Positions 1-11,096 of a DNA stretch of 47,574 bases are shown piece by piece. Below the pieces are notes generated by a model. The model made no database searches. It saw nothing but the letters and a program-made list of their open reading frames with translations, and was not told the DNA's origin. The position numbers and the translations under genes are program-made. The first letter of the stretch is position 1. Every line of letters begins with the position of its first letter. The stretch comes from Escherichia phage RobRod40, in sequence record OR896835.1; one strand, given 5' to 3'.

Positions 1-1572
1 ATGAGTGATTTAATCGTCTGGGATGAACTGACATACGCAGAAAAGATGGCTATCAAGGCCATCTCTGAGCATAGTTTCGAGGGGTTCTTGCGGTGCTTCT
101 TCCAGATAACTCAGGGTGAGAGATTTAAAATGAATTGGCATGCGAAGTACCTTTGCCGCGTCATAGATGAGATTCTTGAGGGTAAGAGAAAGGACACCAT
201 CATAAACGTAGCTCCCGGATCAGCCAAAACAGAACTATTTAGCATTCACTTCCCTGTATATAGCATGATTAAGATTAAGAAGGTCAGGAATCTTAGCTTG
301 TCATTCTCTGACTCATTGGTTAAGCGTAACTCTAAGCGCGTTCGTGACCTGATTAAGTCAAAGGAATTCCAGGAACTATGGCCATGCTCCTTCGGAACGT
401 GCAGGGATGACGAGATTCAGGTACTGGATGAGAATGGTAAAGTTAGGTTTGAATCTATATCTAAGGCGATGGCTGGACAGGTGACGGGAAGTAGGGGTGG
501 ATACATGACTGACGATTATAGTGGCTGCATAATGCTGGATGACCCACTAAAACCTGATGACGCGCTAAGTAATGTAAGAAGAGAGGCTGTCAATATGCTT
601 CTCAAGAACACAATTCGTTCACGTCGAGCTAGCTCAGTAAAGGGAAAGGAAACGCCAATACTTGCCGTGCAGCAAAGACTTCATGTTCTGGACACTAGCA
701 ACTTCATGGAGTCAGGGAAAATGGGCATCAAGTTCGACGTAGTGAAAGTTCCAGCCATAGTCACAGAGGATTACGCCGACACGCTTCCTGAGTGGATCAG
801 GCAACAATTTATTGATGATGTTCTTTCATCACCATTTGTAGAGCGTGATGGTGTTAAGTATTACAGCTACTTTCCGGAAAAGGAGTCAATAGAAGACTTG
901 ATGGCCATGCGGGATGCTGACCCGTATACATTCCTAAGTCAGTACGCTCAAGAACCTGTAGCACTAGGTGGCAACCTAATCAACGTAGATTGGTTCCAGA
1001 GAATTAGCGATACGTTCAGGAACCCAGTTAAGTACGATTATAGATTCATAACTTGCGATACTGCGATGACTACAAAGAGTTATAGTGACTTCTCCGTGCT
1101 TCAGTTGTGGGGATATAAGGATGCTAAGATTTACCTGATAGACCAGCGCAGGGGCAAATGGGAGGCACCAGAGTTGGAAGCTGAACTACTCGATTTTGAG
1201 AAGAAATCAAGGGCAACCAGTCAGTCAGATGGCATCCTTCGAAAAATTATCATCGAGAAGAAAGCTTCTGGTATCGGCCTGATTCAATCGGCAGGTAGGG
1301 TAATGCGAACGCCGATAGAGCCATACGTTCCGGATAACGATAAGCTGACTCGCGTAATGAGCGCATTGCCACAAATTAAAGCTGGTAACGTAGTTCTTCC
1401 AGAATCAGCACCATGGCTAAGCGGATTACTTACGGAGATTGCGGCCTTTACGGCAGACGACTCACATAAGCATGATGACCAAATTGACTGTCTAACAATG
1501 GCGGTAAACCTTGTTCTCAATATAGCAGATGATCCAAAATCAAGAATGCTTCGCCTTGCCGGAATAAAATAG
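1..1572 (+). CDS. terminase large subunit
   Basis: 523-aa ORF starting at window base 1; P-loop-like segment VAPGSAKT near N-terminus; sits directly upstream of portal and (circularly) downstream of terS-like gene and HNH at window end. Confidence 0.8.
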   Translation: MSDLIVWDELTYAEKMAIKAISEHSFEGFLRCFFQITQGERFKMNWHAKYLCRVIDEILEGKRKDTIINVAPGSAKTELFSIHFPVYSMIKIKKVRNLSLSFSDSLVKRNSKRVRDLIKSKEFQELWPCSFGTCRDDEIQVLDENGKVRFESISKAMAGQVTGSRGGYMTDDYSGCIMLDDPLKPDDALSNVRREAVNMLLKNTIRSRRASSVKGKETPILAVQQRLHVLDTSNFMESGKMGIKFDVVKVPAIVTEDYADTLPEWIRQQFIDDVLSSPFVERDGVKYYSYFPEKESIEDLMAMRDADPYTFLSQYAQEPVALGGNLINVDWFQRISDTFRNPVKYDYRFITCDTAMTTKSYSDFSVLQLWGYKDAKIYLIDQRRGKWEAPELEAELLDFEKKSRATSQSDGILRKIIIEKKASGIGLIQSAGRVMRTPIEPYVPDNDKLTRVMSALPQIKAGNVVLPESAPWLSGLLTEIAAFTADDSHKHDDQIDCLTMAVNLVLNIADDPKSRMLRLAGIK

Positions 1573-1612
1573 CACTTTATGCAAAGAATAAAGCTCACGG
1601 ATGAGCTAACAT
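1569..1612 (+). promoter_or_regulatory. conserved promoter-like module (variant ATAGCAC-ttt-ATGCAAAG, 22 bp, TAACAT)
   Basis: terL stop TAG embedded in motif; spacer holds palindrome GCTCAcggaTGAGC; precedes HNH paralog 1. Confidence 0.5.
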
Positions 1613-1635
1613 AATCAAAAAAAAGAGGGTGTATT

Positions 1636-2112
1636 ATGAATTGGGCTGAATTTTTTAGATACGAAGATGGAAATCTGGTAAGGGTTATCACAACCTCAAG
1701 TAGAGCTATTGAGGGCATGGTTGCTGGAAGCTTGCCTGGCAATGGCTATCTGCACATAAGAATAGGCGACAGGCGTGTAAAAAACCATCGCATAATTTGG
1801 GAGATGCACAATGGAAGGATACCAGAAGGGATGGAGATATATCATATCAATCACATAAAGACAGATAACAGGATCGAGAATTTAAGGCTCGTAAGTCACA
1901 AACAGAACCTATCAAACGCATCGCTTAGGTCCGACTCGTCAACTGGTACGAGTGGCGTTAGTTGGAACAGAAACAGGCAGAAGTGGCACGCTTATATAAA
2001 GTCTAACTACAAGAGGATGCACATAGGATTTTTTGATTCCTTTGATAACGCCGTAGCAGCAAGAAAGAAAAAGGAGATTGAACTGGGATTTCATGAGAAT
2101 CACGGAAAATAG
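1636..2112 (+). CDS. HNH homing endonuclease (paralog 1)
   Basis: MNW..F.Y.DG N-terminus, WEMHNG and HINHIKTDNRIENLR motifs; RBS AAGAGGG upstream; shares these motifs with three other ORFs in window. Confidence 0.85.
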   Translation: MNWAEFFRYEDGNLVRVITTSSRAIEGMVAGSLPGNGYLHIRIGDRRVKNHRIIWEMHNGRIPEGMEIYHINHIKTDNRIENLRLVSHKQNLSNASLRSDSSTGTSGVSWNRNRQKWHAYIKSNYKRMHIGFFDSFDNAVAARKKKEIELGFHENHGK

Positions 2113-2152
2113 CACTAATTGCTAAACATCAACACCAAGTATGGAGTATAGT
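2109..2152 (+). promoter_or_regulatory. conserved promoter-like module (ATAGCAC-taa-TTGCTAAA, 22 bp, TATAGT)
   Basis: Stop TAG of HNH embedded; followed by TACCTCACGAAAACGAG leader and RBS. Confidence 0.6.
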
Positions 2153-2183
2153 TACCTCACGAAAACGAGAGGAGAAAAGACAA

Positions 2184-2570
2184 ATGAAAAGCATTTCAAA
2201 AGCTGTATATCTTGGCAACACTAATGGGGAGTATTATGGTTTTACTGTAGGTAATACATATAGTGTTAAATATTTTGAAGCTATAAGTGAAAACTGTTTT
2301 TGGTGTTCAGATGATGATGGTGTTTACCGATATGTCAAAAACGGACCATTGCACAAGTTTAAACTAAGTGATGAGGATGGCTATTTTGTAACTGAGGCTG
2401 AATGCGAAGTCATGCCCCCTATAGACGATAAAAAACCCGAGCTTAGATATTACATCAACGGACATGAGGTTGACGTGATTGAGTTCGGAAATGTTGGCCG
2501 TACTGTATATGAGCTTGATCGGGATGGCATAAAGTGCGACACAATCAAGTTCGAAGTAAAATTCGAGTAA
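2184..2570 (+). CDS. hypothetical protein (accessory gene between HNH and portal)
   Basis: 128-aa ORF with RBS GAGAGGAG; own upstream promoter-like module and downstream terminator. Confidence 0.6.
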   Translation: MKSISKAVYLGNTNGEYYGFTVGNTYSVKYFEAISENCFWCSDDDGVYRYVKNGPLHKFKLSDEDGYFVTEAECEVMPPIDDKKPELRYYINGHEVDVIEFGNVGRTVYELDRDGIKCDTIKFEVKFE

Positions 2571-2592
2571 CCATAAAAGCTATGATAAACTA

Positions 2593-2616
2593 AGCCCCTA
2601 TATGGGGCTTTTTTAT
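2593..2616 (+). terminator. rho-independent terminator
   Basis: GC hairpin AGCCCC-tata-GGGGCT followed by T-run. Confidence 0.7.
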
Positions 2617-2627
2617 TGGAGAAAAAC

Positions 2628-3881
2628 ATGGTCAAGACAGACAGCTACGCCAATATCTTTCTCGGCGGTAGTGATGGTAGTGAGATTTACGGAAGTTTAC
2701 AGAATCAGGCACCAACAATTCTGGCCTCGCTTTACGCGGATAATGCTCTAGTGCGTCGAATTATCGACACAATCCCAGAGACGGCATTGGCGGCAGGATT
2801 CCATATTGATGGTATTGATGATGAGCCTGCATTCTGGTCGCGCTGGGATGATTTAGAAATGACGCAGAATATTAACGATGCATGGTCATGGGCTAGGTTG
2901 TTCGGCGGGGCTGCTATTGTCGCTATCGTTAAGGACAATAGAGCGCTAACAAGTCCGGTAAGAGAAGGAGCGGAACTTGAAACTGTTCGCGTTTACGACC
3001 GTACACAAGTAAAGGTTCAAACTCGCGAGGAGAATCCACGCAATGCACGTTTTGGTAAGCCACTTACCTATCGCATCACCACTAACGAAAGCGATATGTT
3101 TTACGATGTGCATTACAGCCGCATTCACGTCATCGATGGCGAGAGAATTCCTAACGTAATGCGTCGGCAAAATGATGGCTGGGGCCGCAGCGTTCTTTCC
3201 AGTGATATTCTTGACTCAATCAAGGATTACACCAATTGCGAACGACTCGCCACCCAGCTGCTGAGACGCAAGCAACAGGCGGTGTGGAAAGCCAAAGGTC
3301 TGGCTGAGCTGTGTGATGATAGCGAAGGATTTGGTGCCGCGCGCTTGCGACTTGCTCAGGTAGATAACAACAGTGGAGTTGGTCAGGCGATTGGTATTGA
3401 CGCGGAATCTGAAGAATATAGCGTTCTAAACTCTGATATTGGCGGGATTGATGCGTTTCTGGACAAGAAGCTCGATAGAATCGTTGCACTGAGCGGTATT
3501 CATGAAATAATCCTGAAGAACAAGAACGTTGGCGGTGTATCATCAAGCCAGAACACGGCTTTGGAGACATTCCACAAGCTAGTTGACCGCAAGCGTAATA
3601 GCGAGCTACTTCCTATTCTTGAGTTCTTAATCCCGTTCATTGTTAATGTGTCTGAATGGTCAGTGGAGTTTAACCCATTAGCTCAGGAGTCAAGCAAGGA
3701 TAAAGCGGAAATTCTGGAGAAGAACGTAAACAGCATCGCGGCACTAATTGCAGCTGGAGCTATGGATACTAACGAGGCTCGTGATACACTACGCACTATC
3801 GCGCCAGAGATTAAGATTGGTGATGGTGATATTGAGGCTCCGGAACAAGAACCCGCAGAGGAGGTTGTGATTAATGAGTAA
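2628..3881 (+). CDS. portal protein
   Basis: ~417-aa ORF after terL; ATG at 2628 preceded by GGAG (ORF-track start 2616 is TTG); size and position typical of siphovirus portal. Confidence 0.7.
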   Translation: MVKTDSYANIFLGGSDGSEIYGSLQNQAPTILASLYADNALVRRIIDTIPETALAAGFHIDGIDDEPAFWSRWDDLEMTQNINDAWSWARLFGGAAIVAIVKDNRALTSPVREGAELETVRVYDRTQVKVQTREENPRNARFGKPLTYRITTNESDMFYDVHYSRIHVIDGERIPNVMRRQNDGWGRSVLSSDILDSIKDYTNCERLATQLLRRKQQAVWKAKGLAELCDDSEGFGAARLRLAQVDNNSGVGQAIGIDAESEEYSVLNSDIGGIDAFLDKKLDRIVALSGIHEIILKNKNVGGVSSSQNTALETFHKLVDRKRNSELLPILEFLIPFIVNVSEWSVEFNPLAQESSKDKAEILEKNVNSIAALIAAGAMDTNEARDTLRTIAPEIKIGDGDIEAPEQEPAEEVVINE

Positions 3882-4962
3882 AATCCGCTATGACAGCGCA
3901 AAGTTTAAAGCAACAATCGACGAGAATGGATTCTTAGTCGACACACCAGTAGTTGCACGTCTCGGCGTGCAAGTCTACTACATGGAAGACGGGCGCACTG
4001 TTCGAGAGTTTCGCCCAGCAGAGGAGGTTTTCAAGGAGGAATCACTCGCAAGTTACCAGGGCAAGCCAATGACTATGGACCATGTTTTCGTTAACTCTGA
4101 GAACGCTAAAGAAGTAGTGGTGGGTTCCGTTAGTGGCAAAGCTGAGCCATTAGGTAGCTCCGTGGTTGCTCCTATCGTTGTTTACGACAATACAGCCATT
4201 CAGGAAGCTATGGCAGGTAACGCTAAGGAGTTATCGGTTGGATACTCTGCGATTCTTGACGAAACTCCAGGTTGGGGCGACCCTGTTACTGGTGAATACG
4301 TCCTTAAATCTGATGGTGATCAATTCGATGCGCCAGAAGGATGGCAGGAGTTCGACGCAATTCAGCGTGATATTAAAGTTAACCATCTCGCAATGGTGTA
4401 TCGCGGTCGCGCAGGTATTGCCAAATTGAATATGGACGGTGAGCAGGAAAACCCGTATACTACTGACGTTGATATCAATAAAGAGGATAAACAGGAAATG
4501 ACAATTAAGATTAAACTCGACGGCGCACAGGAATTTGAAGTTGCCCCGGAAATCGCTTCTCACATCGAAGCACTGAACGCAAAGGCCGATACCGCAATCG
4601 CTGAGCGTGATGCACTGAAAGCTAAAGTAGATGCTATGCCAGAGGAAATCGAAGCCGCTGTAGCCAAAGCAAAAGCTGATGCTGATGCTCTCGCCGCTCT
4701 GGTTGCTGTTGCTGCTGAGGCTGGCGTTAAGGCTGATGGTATGGATTCTAAAGGAATCAAAGTAGCTTACGTTAAAGAAGTCTCCGGTCTTGATGTTGCT
4801 GAGAAATCTGACGCGTACATCGACGCAGCGTTCGACATTGCCAAAGAATCTGATAAAATGGCTGAAGTACGTAAAGCGACTACCGCTTCCGACAAATCTG
4901 ACAGCGCCAATGAGCCTAAGAAATTAGACCCGCGTGCTCGTTTAGCTAAAATTAAGAAATAA
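3874..4962 (+). CDS. putative head morphogenesis / scaffolding protein (possible prohead protease domain)
   Basis: 362 aa; globular N-terminal half then Ala/Glu/Lys-rich predicted coiled coil (AKADTAIAERDALKAKVDAMPEEIEAAVAKAKADADALAALVAVAAEAG); start overlaps portal stop. Confidence 0.5.
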   Translation: MSKIRYDSAKFKATIDENGFLVDTPVVARLGVQVYYMEDGRTVREFRPAEEVFKEESLASYQGKPMTMDHVFVNSENAKEVVVGSVSGKAEPLGSSVVAPIVVYDNTAIQEAMAGNAKELSVGYSAILDETPGWGDPVTGEYVLKSDGDQFDAPEGWQEFDAIQRDIKVNHLAMVYRGRAGIAKLNMDGEQENPYTTDVDINKEDKQEMTIKIKLDGAQEFEVAPEIASHIEALNAKADTAIAERDALKAKVDAMPEEIEAAVAKAKADADALAALVAVAAEAGVKADGMDSKGIKVAYVKEVSGLDVAEKSDAYIDAAFDIAKESDKMAEVRKATTASDKSDSANEPKKLDPRARLAKIKK

Positions 4963-4974
4963 GGAGTTATAAAC

Positions 4975-5496
4975 ATGGCAATTCGTTCCGTAGCACTGGC
5001 TGGTATGGTTTCTGATACCTCTCTCTATAACATCGACGGCGCTTGTGTTGTTGGTGGCGCAGCAGCAATTCCTGTTGGCACTGTCGTTGGTGTTACATCC
5101 GCTCAGCCTGTAGATGGTCACAAGGTTGTTGGCCTTCCCGCCGTAACTGGTACGCCAGTCAAACCTTATGGTGTTGTTGTTAAATCTCATTACGAGACCC
5201 CAGATGGTACGGCTCGCGTAAATGAAGCAGTTAACGTAATGACTCATGGTCGCATCTGGGTACGCACCACTCTAGCAGCTGCGCCAGTTTTTGGTAGCAA
5301 GGTTTTCGTAAACGCAAGTGGTGTTGTTGTTGCTGAAGCGGCTGGCACTACTTGGGAGACTGGTTTTACATTTGCTGGTGGTTATGCGTCTGCTTATGCT
5401 GGCGGCGCTAACCCAATCAAGCAAGGTGAAAGCTACGATGGTGCAATCGTTGAGGTTCAGCTGATTCAATCCGCTGACTCAGCTGTCGCAGCTTAA
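4975..5496 (+). CDS. putative capsid decoration / structural protein
   Basis: 173 aa, Gly/Val/Ala-rich; strong RBS TAAGGAG; followed by rho-independent terminator; position between scaffold and capsid. Confidence 0.45.
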   Translation: MAIRSVALAGMVSDTSLYNIDGACVVGGAAAIPVGTVVGVTSAQPVDGHKVVGLPAVTGTPVKPYGVVVKSHYETPDGTARVNEAVNVMTHGRIWVRTTLAAAPVFGSKVFVNASGVVVAEAAGTTWETGFTFAGGYASAYAGGANPIKQGESYDGAIVEVQLIQSADSAVAA

Positions 5497-5502
5497 TTAC
5501 AC

Positions 5503-5523
5503 GGCCCTTCGGGGCCTTTTTTA
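5503..5523 (+). terminator. rho-independent terminator
   Basis: GGCCC-ttcg-GGGCC hairpin then TTTTTT. Confidence 0.75.
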
Positions 5524-5534
5524 ATGGAGGCTTT

Positions 5535-6080
5535 ATGATAAAAGTATTTTCTGGTGACTTCGAGTTCGCGCATGAGGCTGATGCATTTCTTAATGATGCA
5601 ATTTCCTCAGGATTCAAATATCTAGTTAGATCTCTGAGCACATCACAAATGATTCAGGCCTATAGTCGCAGCGACACAACGCCAGGGAAAGGGGTTATAA
5701 GAAAGGACGGGGTGAGAGTTTTGGGTGTAGCCCTGTCTGACGACCCTAGATGCGGAGAATTGGTTGATGAATTTTCGGTTTTTAAGTCAGCGGAGTATGA
5801 GGAGTATACCCATGAGATTGATGGTGTATGGGTTAACTATATCCACAATGACTTCTTAGATAAATTAAATGATGGCTGGAGGACGGTTACAGACAACAGC
5901 GTATCTCCTTTAAGCTACTACTATCAGGTGTTGACGTGGTCATGGGAGTACAGCTACTATTACACAAGATCATCATCAACTTATGGTATTTGCTTTTTGG
6001 CTAGATTTGCAAATCATGATTCAACTAAAAAGTCTGGTTGGGCTTTAGTCAAGTACGAAGAAGTTGACTCTCCAGAGTAA
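5535..6080 (+). CDS. hypothetical protein (terminator-flanked, moron-like)
   Basis: 181-aa ORF, RBS GGAGG; flanked on both sides by strong terminators; Tyr/Ser-rich C-terminus. Confidence 0.55.
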   Translation: MIKVFSGDFEFAHEADAFLNDAISSGFKYLVRSLSTSQMIQAYSRSDTTPGKGVIRKDGVRVLGVALSDDPRCGELVDEFSVFKSAEYEEYTHEIDGVWVNYIHNDFLDKLNDGWRTVTDNSVSPLSYYYQVLTWSWEYSYYYTRSSSTYGICFLARFANHDSTKKSGWALVKYEEVDSPE

Positions 6081-6085
6081 ATTAA

Positions 6086-6109
6086 AGCCTCCTTCGGGAG
6101 GTTTTTTTA
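6086..6109 (+). terminator. rho-independent terminator
   Basis: CCTCC-ttcg-GGAGG hairpin then TTTTTTT. Confidence 0.75.
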
Positions 6110-6161
6110 TGCCTGTAATCTGTTAGACTTATTAAGTATATTAACCAATCAGGAGATTAAG

Positions 6162-7595
6162 ATGGCTAGTGAATTAAGAGCAGTGACTGCTGGTACTGCC
6201 CATGCCCTAAAGCAAAAAATCACCGAATACATAGCTGAAGGTTGGCAGCCTTATGGCAGGATCCTTAATGCTGGGGCGACAAGTGTTGGCATTATAATGG
6301 CGAAAGGTACTGAGGCAAACATTACTGATGTTGATGTTATTACCGCAGATTCAAGGGCTTCCTTAGTTTCTAAGATTAACTCATCCATAGAAAATGGATT
6401 TGAGATGTTCGGCGAGCAGGAAGTGAACGCAAGTAGATTTATCGCATTCATGACTAAAGGGTCTCAAGGTTCATCTGGTGGCGGTGGTGAACCTGGACCA
6501 ATTGGACCAAAGGGTGATAAGGGAGATAAGGGTGACAAGGGAGACGTTGGTGAGCGCGGACCCGCTGGCGTAGCTGGTTCTGCTGGCGCTACAGGCCCGA
6601 CAGGCCCTCAGGGTTTAACTGGACCTGCTGGCGAAAAAGGTGATACTGGAGAGCAAGGCCCAATTGGCCCTACTGGTCCCACTGGCCCAAAGGGTGATAC
6701 TGGCGCAACTGGCCCCGCCGGACCGCAAGGCCCAAGAGGATTGCAAGGTGAACAGGGGGTTCCGGGCGAGGTTGGACCGGCTGGCTTGACATTCCAGGGC
6801 GCATGGGATTCTGCCTCCACATATGTGAAGGATGACACTGTAGTTTATGATGGATCTACTTGGTTTGCTCCAGATGCTGTAGCCTCAGGTTTGGTTCCAG
6901 GTGTTGCTCCTGAGTGGATCCTTTTAGCTGCACAAGGCGCAAGGGGAGAGGATGGTCCGCAGGGTCCGGTTGGCCCTCAGGGTTTACAGGGTGCCACTGG
7001 CCCGGCAGGTCCTACTGGCGCTACTGGCGCTACAGGTCCGCAAGGTCCCAGAGGTATACAAGGTCAAACCGGCCCGGCAGGTCCAGCAGGTCCTCAGGGT
7101 GAGGCTGGTCCTCAGGGTATTCAGGGACCACAGGGTATCGCTGGACCTCAGGGATTAACTGGCCCTCAGGGTCCAAAGGGTGATAAAGGTGATGCTCCTT
7201 ACACATTGTTTAACTCGCAGAACGTTACATCAACATACATTGAAATCCCCATTCCGCAAGTAACCAACACTGTACTTAGGGTTAGGCTTTCAGGTGCCAA
7301 CTTTGAATATAGCGTTTTAAGTAAAGGTGGCGCTAATAGATATGTTGACTTTTACACATTCATCCCGTCATTAACCAGCTCAACGGGTAACATCTATACC
7401 GGAGGAACCACCTTAACACCAACTGGTAGTCTTTTTTTGGGTAATTCCCCTGTGGCTCTCGGGTTAAGGGAGTTGACAATAACACTTAAGGAATGGGGTG
7501 ACAGGACACTAACTACAATAAAGGCGATACATCACGGCAGATCAGGTGACACAACAAGACCCTTGCAGATAACTATGTTTAGTAATAAGTATTAA
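6162..7595 (+). CDS. collagen-like repeat fibre protein
   Basis: Two long Gly-X-Y repeat tracts interrupted by a [13 protein letters not shown] tail-fibre-like segment; non-collagenous N- and C-terminal domains. Confidence 0.8.
6513..6548 (+). repeat. tandem 9-bp coding repeats (GGTGATAAG-like x4) in collagen-like gene
   Basis: ggtgataag ggagataag ggtgacaag ggagacgtt encoding [11 protein letters not shown]. Confidence 0.7.
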
Positions 7596-7609
7596 CAAAA
7601 AGCCCACCA

Positions 7610-7637
7610 TTGCGTGGGCTAAAAACTCGTGTATAAT
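7610..7637 (+). promoter_or_regulatory. candidate promoter for major capsid gene (TTGCGT-16-TGTATAAT)
   Basis: Perfect TATAAT at 7632-7637 with upstream TG; -35 region overlaps hairpin 7601-7620. Confidence 0.4.
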
Positions 7638-7675
7638 AAACCCGTAGACACCTAACTGAAAAGGAACAATAAAGA

Positions 7676-8620
7676 ATGGCCATTAAATTTGATGCAGAAC
7701 AAGCAAAAATCACCGCTCACCTCGAGCAAATGGGCGTAGATAAAGCTGATGCCGCCGGTATCTGGACCGTTAAGCAGCTGACCGCCACCCTGAATCGTGC
7801 TTACGAAAAAGAATATGCAGACAACTCCGTTGTTAACATCTTCCCTGTAACCAATGAAATCCCTGGTCACGCTAAGTATTTCGAATATCCAGAATTTGAT
7901 GGCGTTGGTATTGCTCAGATTATCGCGGATTACTCTGACGACCTGCCGCTGGTTGATGCTTTCATGACAGAGAAGCAAGGTAAAGTTTTCCGTTTCGGTA
8001 ACGCATTCCTGATTTCTACTGATGAAATTAAAGCAGGCGCTGCTACTGGTCAGTCTCTGTCAACTCGCAAACAGGCACTGGCTTTCGAAGCGCACGACAA
8101 CCTGCTGGATAAACTGGTTTGGTCTGGATCCACTCCGCACGGTATCGTGAGCGTATTCGACCAGCCGAACATCAACAACGTTGTTGCAACACCAGACTGG
8201 AGCGAGCCGCTGAACGCAATTAATGACGTTACTGCAATGATTGATGCGGTTGAGACTTCAACTCAGGGCTTCCATCACGTGACTGATATTCTACTTCCGG
8301 CATCTGCTCGCCGAGTAATGCAGGTTCTTGTTCCGAGTACTACCCTGAGCTACGGTGAGCTGTTCACCCGTAATAATCCGGGCCTGACTATTCGTTACAT
8401 GCAGTTCCTGGATAACTACGATGGCGCAGGTGGTAAGGCTGCTCTGGCGTTTGAAAAGAACCCGTTGAATATGTCTATCGAGATTCCAGAAGCTACAAAC
8501 GTACTTCCTGGTCAGCCGAAAGACTTGCACTTCAAGTACCCAGTAACTTCTAAAGCGACCGGTCTGATTGTTTATCGCCCTCTGACGATGGCAGTAATCA
8601 AAGGTATTACCTTCGCGTAA
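7676..8620 (+). CDS. major capsid protein
   Basis: 314 aa; own promoter with perfect TATAAT; strong terminator downstream; position in head module. Confidence 0.75.
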   Translation: MAIKFDAEQAKITAHLEQMGVDKADAAGIWTVKQLTATLNRAYEKEYADNSVVNIFPVTNEIPGHAKYFEYPEFDGVGIAQIIADYSDDLPLVDAFMTEKQGKVFRFGNAFLISTDEIKAGAATGQSLSTRKQALAFEAHDNLLDKLVWSGSTPHGIVSVFDQPNINNVVATPDWSEPLNAINDVTAMIDAVETSTQGFHHVTDILLPASARRVMQVLVPSTTLSYGELFTRNNPGLTIRYMQFLDNYDGAGGKAALAFEKNPLNMSIEIPEATNVLPGQPKDLHFKYPVTSKATGLIVYRPLTMAVIKGITFA

Positions 8621-8626
8621 TAAATC

Positions 8627-8649
8627 GCCCTCTTCGGAGGGCTTTTTTA
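8627..8649 (+). terminator. rho-independent terminator after major capsid gene
   Basis: GCCCTC-ttcg-GAGGGC hairpin then TTTTTT. Confidence 0.8.
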
Positions 8650-8653
8650 CGTC

Positions 8654-8682
8654 TGTACCAAATGGATTTGTTCGGTTATAAT
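8654..8682 (+). promoter_or_regulatory. candidate promoter with perfect -10 TATAAT (weak -35)
   Basis: TATAAT at 8677-8682 then AACAAAGGAG RBS; shares downstream layout with 46465-46494. Confidence 0.3.
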
Positions 8683-8712
8683 CACTCAATCAGATAAACA
8701 AAGGAGACAAAA

Positions 8713-8958
8713 ATGATTCGTTTAGAACACACTGGCGCTTGCCTTATCGTTTACAAGGGTGAGAAATATTTACCAGGCGACACTTTCGAGGTTGATGTAA
8801 TTTGCGACGGACTCAAGCGCTTAATCGCAGAGGGTAAGCTCACCATTGAGGGTGACACCAAAGCAACCAAGCAGATCGCGCAGGAAATTGTTAGCAAGAA
8901 GAAGCGCAAAGAACCGAAAACCATCTCCGAAGCTGAGACTGGTAACGAGTACAAATAA
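8713..8958 (+). CDS. hypothetical protein (Lys-rich C-terminus)
   Basis: 81-aa ORF, RBS AAGGAG; TATAAT promoter upstream; terminator-like hairpin downstream. Confidence 0.55.
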   Translation: MIRLEHTGACLIVYKGEKYLPGDTFEVDVICDGLKRLIAEGKLTIEGDTKATKQIAQEIVSKKKRKEPKTISEAETGNEYK

Positions 8959-8964
8959 CAAACA

Positions 8965-8986
8965 GGGCGCTTCAGCGTCCTTTATT
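8965..8986 (+). terminator. possible weak terminator
   Basis: GGGCGC-ttca-GCGTCC (one G-U) then TTTATT. Confidence 0.4.
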
Positions 8987-8999
8987 GTATGGAGCTAAT

Positions 9000-9401
9000 A
9001 TGAATGATGAAATTTTGGCGTTTATGCGATCTCTTGTTCCTGCGCTCAAGGAAGTGGATGATGAATCAATTAATGTGTGGGTCGATTTGGCACGCCTCTA
9101 CGTATGTGAGGATAAGTTTGGTAATGATGCAGATCGCGCTGTGGGCCTTTATGCACTACACCTGATGCTTTCTGATGGAGCGTTTAAGGGTGAGAATGAA
9201 GGCTTGGAAACATACAGCCGTAGAATGGCGAGTTATGCACTGAGCGGTGAATTCTCTATCACTTATGATAACCAGTCAGCAATTCAGGGCGACTTATCAT
9301 CTTCCTCCTGGGGCCGTATGTACAAAGCACTTCTCCGCAAGAAAGGTGGCGGCTTTGGATTGATTACTTCCGCTCGTGTCGGTGGGTGCGGTTGCCGATG
9401 A
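9000..9401 (+). CDS. putative head-tail connector/adaptor protein
   Basis: ATG at 9000 preceded by GGAG (track start 8985 is TTG); gene order between capsid and tail genes. Confidence 0.45.
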   Translation: MNDEILAFMRSLVPALKEVDDESINVWVDLARLYVCEDKFGNDADRAVGLYALHLMLSDGAFKGENEGLETYSRRMASYALSGEFSITYDNQSAIQGDLSSSSWGRMYKALLRKKGGGFGLITSARVGGCGCR

Positions 9402-10211: not shown

Positions 10212-10602
10212 ATTATCTATAGCAGCCAGAAAATATGTTAATGATTTGCTGGTGAGCAACTTCCCTGTCAGATATCCAGTATCCTGGGAAAATGTTTCTT
10301 TCACTCCTCCAGCAGATGGCTCTATCTGGCTAAAGTATGACTATATCGAGGTTGATACCGTAACCTACGGACTTAGCAGGAAGTGCAAATACTATGTAGG
10401 AATGGTGCAGGTTTCTGTTTTCTTTAGCCCTGGTACTGGCATTGACAAGCCGAGACAAATCGCTAATCAATTGGCAGAATCTATCGTTGATGGTACAATG
10501 CTTGACAGCGGGACCATTTATGAGTCTGGAGTTGTTAACCCGGTTATCAAATCCAAATCTGGGTGGTTTATCCCGGTTCATTTTTATGTTCGTCTAGACT
10601 AG
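10201..10602 (+). CDS. putative tail terminator-like protein
   Basis: GTG start preceded by GGAGG; overlaps upstream stop; position before major tail gene. Confidence 0.4.
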   Translation: MHYELSIAARKYVNDLLVSNFPVRYPVSWENVSFTPPADGSIWLKYDYIEVDTVTYGLSRKCKYYVGMVQVSVFFSPGTGIDKPRQIANQLAESIVDGTMLDSGTIYESGVVNPVIKSKSGWFIPVHFYVRLD

Positions 10603-10610
10603 GAACTAGC

Positions 10611-11096
10611 ATGAAAGATTTCTTAAATTCTCTTTACGATTATCGCGATGGAAAGATTTACAAGAAGGGCGGTGATAAACCATGTGGTTACGGTAAGACA
10701 AATGGCTACGTTCAAACATACGTTTCAAAGACTGGTAAGCGATATGTTCATAGATTGATCTGGGAAATGCATAATGGTGAAATTGCATATGGAATGCAGA
10801 TAGATCACATTAATGGTGTTAGGGATGATAATCGAATTGAGAATTTAAGATGCGTGACCGTAACTGATAACAGAAGAAATGCTGGAACCAGGTATCGCTC
10901 ACGTAGATTTCCTGGAGTTAATGGAGTAAACTACAACAAGCGCGATGATCTTTGGCATGCAATTATTTCTGACAAAGGAAGAGCAAGGAGTCTTGGTCAT
11001 TATAAGAGTTTTGTCTCAGCTTGCGAAGCAAGGATTGTCGCTGAAGTATTATTGGGATATCACGCTGGTCACGCAATGCGGGATAGCGTTTATTAA
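10611..11096 (+). CDS. HNH homing endonuclease (paralog 2)
   Basis: ATG at 10611 after AGGA; HRLIWEMHNG and IDHINGVRDDNRIENLR motifs; inserted between tail-completion and major tail genes. Confidence 0.85.
   Translation: MKDFLNSLYDYRDGKIYKKGGDKPCGYGKTNGYVQTYVSKTGKRYVHRLIWEMHNGEIAYGMQIDHINGVRDDNRIENLRCVTVTDNRRNAGTRYRSRRFPGVNGVNYNKRDDLWHAIISDKGRARSLGHYKSFVSACEARIVAEVLLGYHAGHAMRDSVY

Follow-up and report, generated by a model that had tools for sequence, protein, structure and literature searches.

Core and accessory small genes at the head-gene junctions of Escherichia phage RobRod40

The head module and its transcriptional punctuation

The complete genome of Escherichia phage RobRod40 (sequence record OR896835.1; 47,574 bp, referred to here as the window) is that of an Rtp-like siphovirus (Drexlerviridae, Braunvirinae) with 85–89% DNA identity to AugustePiccard, Rtp, DTL, IME253 and ∼100 further records. 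All genes across positions 1–9400 lie on the + strand, and among them are three small open reading frames (ORFs), orf128, orf181 and orf81, all of which start with ATG and have a Shine-Dalgarno sequence (Table 1). A first-pass annotation had described the three as terminator-flanked accessory genes of the kind known as morons, inserted between conserved morphogenesis genes. The ORFs and the hairpins beside them are real, the latter folding 2.5–3.9 standard deviations below shuffled sequences (z-scores of minimum free energy; Table 1). Synteny was assessed by tblastn comparison of the window proteins with 23 loci of relatives (phages in GenBank, contigs of IMG/VR, Logan and ENA, and the phages T1 and Rogue1; some are cited below by locus number, L) and by direct reading of the junction sequences. 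We consider it probable that the ORFs fall into two classes, with orf81 a core gene of the head module and orf128 and orf181 dispensable cassettes located at two recombination hot-spots.

Table 1. Genes and regulatory features in the head region of RobRod40 (positions in the window; free energies in kcal/mol with z-scores).
Feature	Position	Strand	Remarks
TerL (terminase large subunit)	1..1572	+	phrog_38 E 6e-107, Terminase_6C; left border of variable slot 1 (TerL-portal)
HNH homing endonuclease	1636..2112	+	HNH_3 E 5e-21, phrog_99 E 1e-58; mobile insertion in slot 1
Promoter-like TAAACA-18-TATAGT	2123..2152	+	In orf128 5' leader; consensus-level only
orf128	2184..2570	+	phrog_14592 E 1e-32, full length
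Core TerL/portal terminator	2592..2610	+	-12.9 kcal/mol, z -2.5, then T6; annotated at same junction in T1
Portal	2628..3881	+	Phage_portal_3 E 4e-69; right border of slot 1
Prohead protease, coiled-coil C-terminal part	3874..4962	+	phrog_530 E 6e-110, DUF2213
Capsid cement protein (T1 gp49 homolog)	4975..5496	+	PF22758 E 5e-26; left border of slot 2 (cement-capsid)
Terminator T_B (GGCCCTTCGGGGCC then T6)	5503..5516	+	-11.0 kcal/mol, z -2.9
orf181	5535..6080	+	Near-orphan; first position of slot 2
Terminator T_A (GCCTCCTTCGGGAGG then T7)	6088..6101	+	-12.3 kcal/mol, z -3.7
Collagen-like protein, 477 amino acids	6162..7595	+	Collagen E 3e-29, DUF1737; second position of slot 2
Hairpin at collagen-cassette/core joint	7601..7620	.	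U-tract absent on + strand
Putative extended -10 promoter of capsid gene (TTGCGT, 16 nt, TG-TATAAT; TGTATAAT)	7610..7637	+	(Near-)invariant in 19/19 loci including AHS24
Major capsid protein	7676..8620	+	phrog_264 E 3e-89, PDB 9n01 E 3e-202; right border of slot 2
Core capsid-gene terminator	8627..8642	+	-12.2 kcal/mol, z -3.3, then T6; all relatives; annotated in T1
TATAAT upstream of orf81	8677..8682	+	All relatives; retained in L011 and L012 despite HNH insertion upstream
orf81	8713..8958	+	Pfam PF24231 (DUF7444); T1 gp46, rtp28
Core hairpin after orf81	8964..8981	+	-12.0 kcal/mol, z -3.9, weak U-tract (TTTATTGT); annotated terminator in T1
Head-tail adaptor	from ~9011	+	Next after orf81

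The five + strand hairpins have GC-rich stems with UUCG-type loops. Intergenic hairpins are kept across the relatives, with compensatory stem substitutions in Rtp and AHS24, and the T1 record carries annotated terminators at the same four junctions. A terminator scan of the region yielded 17 candidates against 10.1 ± 3.8 expected, a modest excess over chance; the corresponding promoter scan (17 against 19.7 ± 4.8) was at chance level. The first-pass annotation had taken terminator flanking as the signature of a moron. This does not hold, because the major capsid gene is flanked in like manner, similar terminators punctuate the RobRod40 tail module, T1 shows the same arrangement at its four junctions, and JK06-like phages have 18–21 terminators per genome (PMC4070988). 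The late region of T1-like phages is terminator-punctuated throughout, and core and accessory genes can be separated only by comparison of synteny.

Distribution of the three genes among related phages

orf81 directly follows the capsid gene in 19 of the 19 loci that reach this position (57–99% identity). Its family comprises 288 phage records from Drexlerviridae of Escherichia, Klebsiella, Shigella and Cronobacter, and 77 protein clusters, all of them stand-alone proteins of 81–104 amino acids on phage-sized contigs. The protein matches PF24231 (DUF7444) with 71.4 bits at a gathering cutoff of 27, and the T1 counterpart, gp46/ST46, does so with 105 bits (E-value 2e-30). Its ratio of nonsynonymous to synonymous substitution rates (dN/dS, 0.04–0.06) equals that of the capsid gene, and its GC content (0.459) is close to that of the genome (0.446). 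The regulatory flanks of orf81, namely the capsid terminator, the TATAAT element and the 3' hairpin, are kept in all relatives, T1 included. Where an HNH gene has entered between the capsid gene and orf81 (L011, phiEB49, Rogue1), it lies between the terminator and TATAAT and leaves the orf81 unit intact. Judged by its presence in every relative and by the equal conservation of its flanks, orf81 is a Drexlerviridae-wide core gene and neither a moron nor a lateral acquisition. The first-pass annotation had named conservation in all relatives, together with a structural place in the virion, as evidence against its proposal; orf81 is conserved everywhere but not demonstrably in the virion, and orf128 and orf181 are patchy.

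As to its role, phage lambda provides a parallel in gpFI, a small non-structural DNA-packaging accessory protein whose gene separates that of the capsid protein from that of the head-tail adaptor. The lambda order E-FI-FII resembles that around orf81 and T1 gp46 (capsid gene, small protein, adaptor). gp46 likewise lies outside the modelled virion, since the near-atomic structure of the whole T1 particle models gp47, gp48, gp49, gp52, gp45, gp44, gp42, gp41 and the tip proteins, with gp46 unmentioned (PMC11945409). orf81 is thus probably a small assembly or packaging factor and not an ordered part of the virion. Two points count against this assignment: a T1 model without gp46 is still compatible with a disordered or low-copy virion component, and the likeness to gpFI is positional only, as sequence similarity to the lambda protein is undetectable and a DUF7444 profile that included the T1 sequence found no match in the PDB.

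The TerL–portal junction presents a different picture. In phages without orf128 (BEK6, DTL, L011, L014, AHS24, T1 and Rogue1) the TerL stop is separated from the portal gene by 48 nt, consisting of TGATAAACT, the core terminator (AGCCCC-loop-GGGGCT-T6) and the portal ribosome-binding site. Phages with orf128 carry a 440–470-bp unit exactly between the TerL stop and TGATAAACT. The 5' leader and the 3' end of this unit, the latter encoding ...KFEVKFE*, are conserved. The leader with its TAAACA-18-TATAGT element is kept in every orf128-bearing locus and missing from loci without the gene, and orf128 may have a weak promoter of its own. The terminator downstream occurs with or without orf128. One otherwise intact copy, in L007 (3568–3942), has a TAG at codon 5.

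The orf128 family is small (28 phage records, 35 clusters) and fast-evolving. The 35 homologs are 45–70% identical, while the flanking genes exceed 90%, and dN/dS is 0.4–0.5, with ∼0.55 in the N-terminal and ∼0.33 in the C-terminal domain; dS (0.5–0.7) is similar to that of neighbouring genes. GC content, at 0.377, is the lowest of the module. The comparison of base composition is clear for orf128 only, and GC content at third codon positions is non-discriminating (0.333 in the cement gene). The alignment resolves a beta-rich N-terminal domain, in which variable loops are set on a conserved scaffold, a variable acidic/Cys linker and a well conserved C-terminal domain. An AlphaFold2 model built on the 35 sequences reached a predicted local distance difference test score (pLDDT) of 57, and Foldseek searches of BFVD and PDB returned nothing at E ≤ 0.001, the N-terminal domain being only weakly SH3-like. 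By its distribution, orf128 is an accessory, dispensable and fast-evolving cassette. A conserved C-terminal domain combined with a hypervariable N-terminal one would suit a binding protein that is driven to diversify, as in an arms race, whether it acts on the virion or against a host factor.

orf181 is nearly an orphan, with two relatives among 5.8 billion proteins and, when 1.84 billion representative proteins were scanned exhaustively with HMMER, four clusters. Searches of Pfam (E-values up to 10), PHROG, NCBIfam, PADLOC and PDB gave no match. orf128 and orf81 were also without matches in NCBIfam and PADLOC, PDB sequence and profile searches gave no meaningful match for any of the three, and comparison of the three families with each other found no similarity. 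All known copies of orf181 lie directly behind the cement gene (in the window, JulesPiccard (L004), L007, L008, L020 and L021), where the order is cement gene, T_B, ribosome-binding site, orf181-family gene and T_A. In phages with an empty slot (Rtp, SU57, BEK2, L014, L015 and L019) it is cement gene, T_A, the conserved extended -10 promoter-like element (TTGCGT-16-TGTATAAT) and capsid gene. T_A is the ancestral terminator of the cement gene, displaced downstream of orf181, and the identical sequence abuts the cement gene in the empty-slot phages. T_B takes up the position right behind the cement gene in DTL and the orf181-family loci only; in all others T_A stands there.

The distance from T_B to the orf181 ATG is 18 nt, which makes a promoter of its own impossible. 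Lacking one, orf181 would be expressed late and at a low level, by read-through of T_B from the head operon. The first-pass annotation had each ORF bounded by terminators, provided with its own promoter, or both. The hairpins are present, as are promoter-like elements at orf128 and orf81; orf181 has no promoter, and the downstream terminators are core elements. With a dN/dS of 0.15 orf181 is subject to purifying selection, and its GC content is 0.414 against the genome's 0.446. In JulesPiccard, a viable BASEL phage, the copy (5643–6185) is intact except for one in-frame stop at codon 75, and its GenBank record splits the disrupted gene into three small coding sequences. Since the phage is viable, orf181 is dispensable.

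The C-terminal peptide KSGWALVKYEEVDSPE is conserved among orf181 members that are otherwise 26–30% identical. From 54 nt before the orf181 stop onwards, and on through the collagen gene, the window and L021 are again homologous at the DNA level, so that the 3' end of orf181 is a mosaic joint. Within these 54 nt, four of the five differences from L021 are synonymous, indicating that the peptide is constrained at the protein level too; L008 differs more. An AlphaFold2 model from a three-sequence alignment was unusable (pLDDT 36), and the beta-tulip cement domain was undetected in orf181 by Pfam and PDB sequence searches. A likeness of the orf181 N-terminus to the DUF1737-type anchor of the collagen protein, suspected by eye, was not supported when the family was aligned with the anchor profile (hhalign probability 0.7%, E-value 0.08 over 14 columns), and no link was found for a 177-amino-acid protein of L016. 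An unannotated 161-amino-acid ORF occupies the orf181 position in DTL (L010, 8667–9151), preceded by a T_B-type terminator. The similarity of its N-terminus to the orf181 family is weak (hhalign E-value 1e-3, probability 21%), and the protein may be a very distant member.

The cement–capsid junction is hypervariable among the compared loci. Apart from the six empty slots listed above, it holds, in T1, a paralog of the cement protein to which a Big_2 Ig domain is fused (gp48); a GDSL esterase in L017 and in AugustePiccard, the latter also with the collagen protein; fibrous proteins on a shared double DUF1737-type N-terminal anchor in BEK6, L011, phiEB49, DTL, Rogue1 and AHS24; an orf181-family gene followed by a collagen or DUF1737 protein in the window, L020, L021 and L008; and an orf181-family gene alone in JulesPiccard and L007. 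In IME253 (L009, 8735–8865) the C-terminal end of the collagen protein survives as a 43-amino-acid ORF, a deletion remnant, the cassette having been lost in that lineage.

For two of these occupants, T1 gp48 and Rogue1 gp21, a place on the capsid or in the virion is backed by experiment. The AugustePiccard esterase matches a PHROG labelled 'head decoration'. T1 gp48 has been resolved on the capsid at quasi-threefold positions with its C-terminal domain outward, and an aid to adsorption was suggested (PMC11945409); it is present in PDB entry 9kzj and named 'decoration protein gp29' in 9kmh. It shares with orf181 the slot and an accessory status (it is missing in Rtp), but at the sequence level it resembles neither orf181 nor the collagen protein. 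The collagen protein of RobRod40 is a full-length ortholog of Rogue1 gp21 (37% identity, E-value 1e-72), which is encoded between the cement and capsid genes and, by mass spectrometry of virions, is one of three major bands in particles purified on caesium chloride (PMC3496638). This observation concerns the neighbour of orf181 and none of the three ORFs.

Cassette exchange, possible functions and competing explanations

At both junctions, TerL–portal and cement–capsid, units have been gained, lost and replaced at fixed borders of conserved regulatory sequence, and orf81 together with every flanking terminator except T_B belongs to the core. We suggest that this exchange uses the conserved terminator and promoter sequences as its homology arms, the orf181 cassette consisting of T_B, a ribosome-binding site and the gene, placed upstream of the ancestral T_A. 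The terminators would adjust the stoichiometry of the products, the capsid gene being a unit by itself from promoter to terminator; the punctuation found across the family would isolate this highly expressed gene, and the flanks of orf81 would be part of it. Accessory cassettes at head-gene junctions are a well-known form of phage mosaicism, and there is no sign of a new system.

With respect to function, the likeliest role of orf181 is that of an accessory protein made late and associated with the capsid, as decoration or adaptor, given that the same slot elsewhere holds proven capsid-surface and virion proteins; we hold this tentatively, at somewhat less than an even chance. A bolder proposal, which we regard as rather unlikely, places a 'capsid display' locus at the cement–capsid junction, dedicated to this use and exchangeable, with conserved regulatory elements as recombination arms and swappable surface modules (the Ig-cement paralog, the GDSL esterase, collagen and other fibres on the DUF1737 anchor, and the orf181 family). 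orf181 would then represent a novel type of capsid-bound adhesin or adaptor docking via KSGWALVKYEEVDSPE, and orf128 might be another hypervariable binder on the virion or an anti-defence protein of a new kind.

A number of observations weigh against these readings. Direct evidence placing orf128 or orf181 in the virion was not found, and published proteomics of relatives detected major proteins only (PMC3496638, PMC4070988); a literature search for proteomics of phiEB49 yielded nothing relevant, and the KanT1 Drexlerviridae paper was silent on these genes. orf128 significantly matches PHROG 14592, labelled 'virion structural protein', but no experiment could be traced behind the label, nor did a proteomic or structural record turn up. 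The structure prediction is unusable for orf181 and weak for orf128, and the fold searches with orf128 were non-significant. Assigning function from the slot is itself weak, as HNH endonucleases use neighbouring junctions too, and orf181 has no detectable similarity to the other slot occupants. Finally, both nonsense alleles, in JulesPiccard and L007, could be sequencing errors.

The proposal of the first-pass annotation, that all three ORFs are laterally acquired morons with autonomous promoters and terminators and with host-interaction or anti-defence functions, appears improbable as a whole. It is sound in so far as orf128 and orf181 behave as accessory genes, with patchy distribution, precise insertion points, nonsense alleles and, for orf128, AT-rich composition, fast evolution and a conserved promoter-like leader; the synteny comparison bears out insertion between morphogenesis genes for these two. 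Small, fast-evolving phage proteins are often anti-defence factors, and as Avs7 senses Drexlerviridae capsid proteins, a counter-measure encoded near the capsid gene is conceivable. The proposal fails for orf81, which is core and has core flanks. It is further weakened by the lack of space for an orf181 promoter, by the existence of the downstream terminators in phages without orf128 or orf181, and by the absence of any match in the functional libraries. Synonymous divergence of orf128 equal to that of its neighbours suggests divergence in situ over recent import. Drexlerviridae are virulent, and a prophage from which a moron could be expressed is therefore lacking.

Morons were reportedly described in lambdoid and HK97-type phages by Juhala et al. 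and Hendrix et al. in 2000. orf128 and orf181 resemble them as extra genes amid essential head genes that are patchy, precisely absent elsewhere and next to terminators, and the deviant base composition of morons is seen in orf128. Morons have their own downstream terminator, whereas those of orf128 and orf181 are core and only the upstream T_B comes with the orf181 cassette; the moron's own promoter is lacking in orf181, orf81 is no insert at all and the host phage is virulent. The HNH insertions of T1-like phages use the same kind of position, between a terminator and the leader of the next gene, at the TerL–portal and capsid–orf81 junctions, but nuclease motifs and HNH matches are absent in orf128, orf181 and orf81.

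Two further explanations concern the cassettes themselves. orf181 could be a dedicated chaperone or adaptor for assembly or attachment of the collagen-like fibre encoded downstream. An orf181-family gene is followed by a 477-amino-acid collagen or a DUF1737 protein in four of six loci (window, L008, L020 and L021), the window and L021 share a DNA module from within the 3' end of orf181 through the collagen gene, and the C-terminal peptide is conserved as protein. We nevertheless judge this role to be quite unlikely, because the fibre occurs without orf181 and orf181 without the fibre: AugustePiccard has a 96% identical collagen protein with the GDSL esterase in place of orf181, Rogue1 virions contain gp21 and the phage has no orf181 homolog, and L007 carries an intact orf181 homolog with the collagen gene missing. 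There is also a very small chance that orf128, orf181 or both are decaying, non-functional recombination junk. Nonsense alleles of both are on record, orf181 is nearly an orphan, the structure predictions are of low confidence, and the collagen remnant of IME253 indicates that decay happens in the cement–capsid slot. Such a history is at odds with dN/dS below 1 for both genes (0.15 for orf181, 0.3–0.5 for orf128), with the length and many invariant columns kept by the 35 orf128 homologs and by orf181 homologs down to 26% identity, and with the strong Shine-Dalgarno sequences of both. Assignment of orf81 to the core and of orf128 and orf181 to dispensable cassettes remains the reading that we prefer.

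This division has practical consequences. Two precise cassette slots with defined border sequences offer convenient and evidently tolerated engineering sites for payloads or capsid-display modules, in a group (Rtp-like phages) that comprises common laboratory and fermentation contaminants as well as candidate therapeutics. The near-orphan orf181 and hypervariable orf128 families are flagged as cheap targets for knockout and proteomics.

Neighbouring insertions and other observations

The first-pass annotation did not list the HNH gene or the collagen-like gene, although these are the two largest inserts of the span (Table 1). The collagen protein begins with two DUF1737-type repeats, continues with two blocks of collagen repeats that have a globular domain between them, and ends in a C-terminal beta domain; it is missing in Rtp, SU57 and BEK2. 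Its double DUF1737-type anchor is confined to Drexlerviridae (32 records) and is fused to non-collagen fibre domains in BEK6, DTL and phiEB49. GenBank homologs of the protein are variously labelled 'DNA polymerase I', 'tail fiber protein' and 'hypothetical'; its recognition as a collagen-like virion protein corrects a widespread mis-annotation ('DNA polymerase', 'tail fiber').

The hairpin between the collagen and capsid genes occurs only in genomes with the collagen cassette, the 3' end of which (AGCCCA) pairs with core TGGGCT. The core sequence overlaps the -35 region of the capsid-gene promoter, and a T-run is present on the minus strand only. Possible roles of the hairpin are to adjust the activity of this promoter or to stabilise the mRNA upstream.

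The RobRod40 capsid protein is nearly identical (E-value 3e-202) to that of ZL19, which is bound together with EF-Tu by SeAvs7, an immune sensor of bacteria, in PDB entries 9N01 and 9YIX; because of this near-identity RobRod40 is probably an Avs7 target. These entries show an immune complex of Avs7, capsid protein and EF-Tu and not an Rtp-like virion, so that the absence of other phage proteins from them is uninformative. The cement protein matches that of PDB 9kmg/9kzj (E-value 5e-27). The portal gene likely starts at the ATG at 2628, behind GGAG; the ORF list has a TTG at 2616.

In Rtp, BEK2, BEK6, T1 and Rogue1 the portal and protease genes have a MuF-like head-morphogenesis gene (rtp24, T1 ST51) between them. 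RobRod40, where portal and protease overlap (3874–3881), lacks this gene, as do AugustePiccard, JulesPiccard and SU57, which makes this a third presence/absence position of the head module. The HNH endonuclease of the TerL–portal junction shares 96% protein identity with its AugustePiccard counterpart, which occupies the same site, while the adjoining TerL reaches only 81%, pointing to recent horizontal spread of the endonuclease. This gene has its own leader, similar to that of orf128, with a CGGA-loop hairpin at 1592–1607. A second HNH endonuclease ORF (177 amino acids, 10563–11096) is located in the tail module between the tail-terminator-like and major tail protein genes. The genome encodes a single tRNA-Arg (anticodon TCT) at 46107–46184, as has been reported for other T1-like phages.

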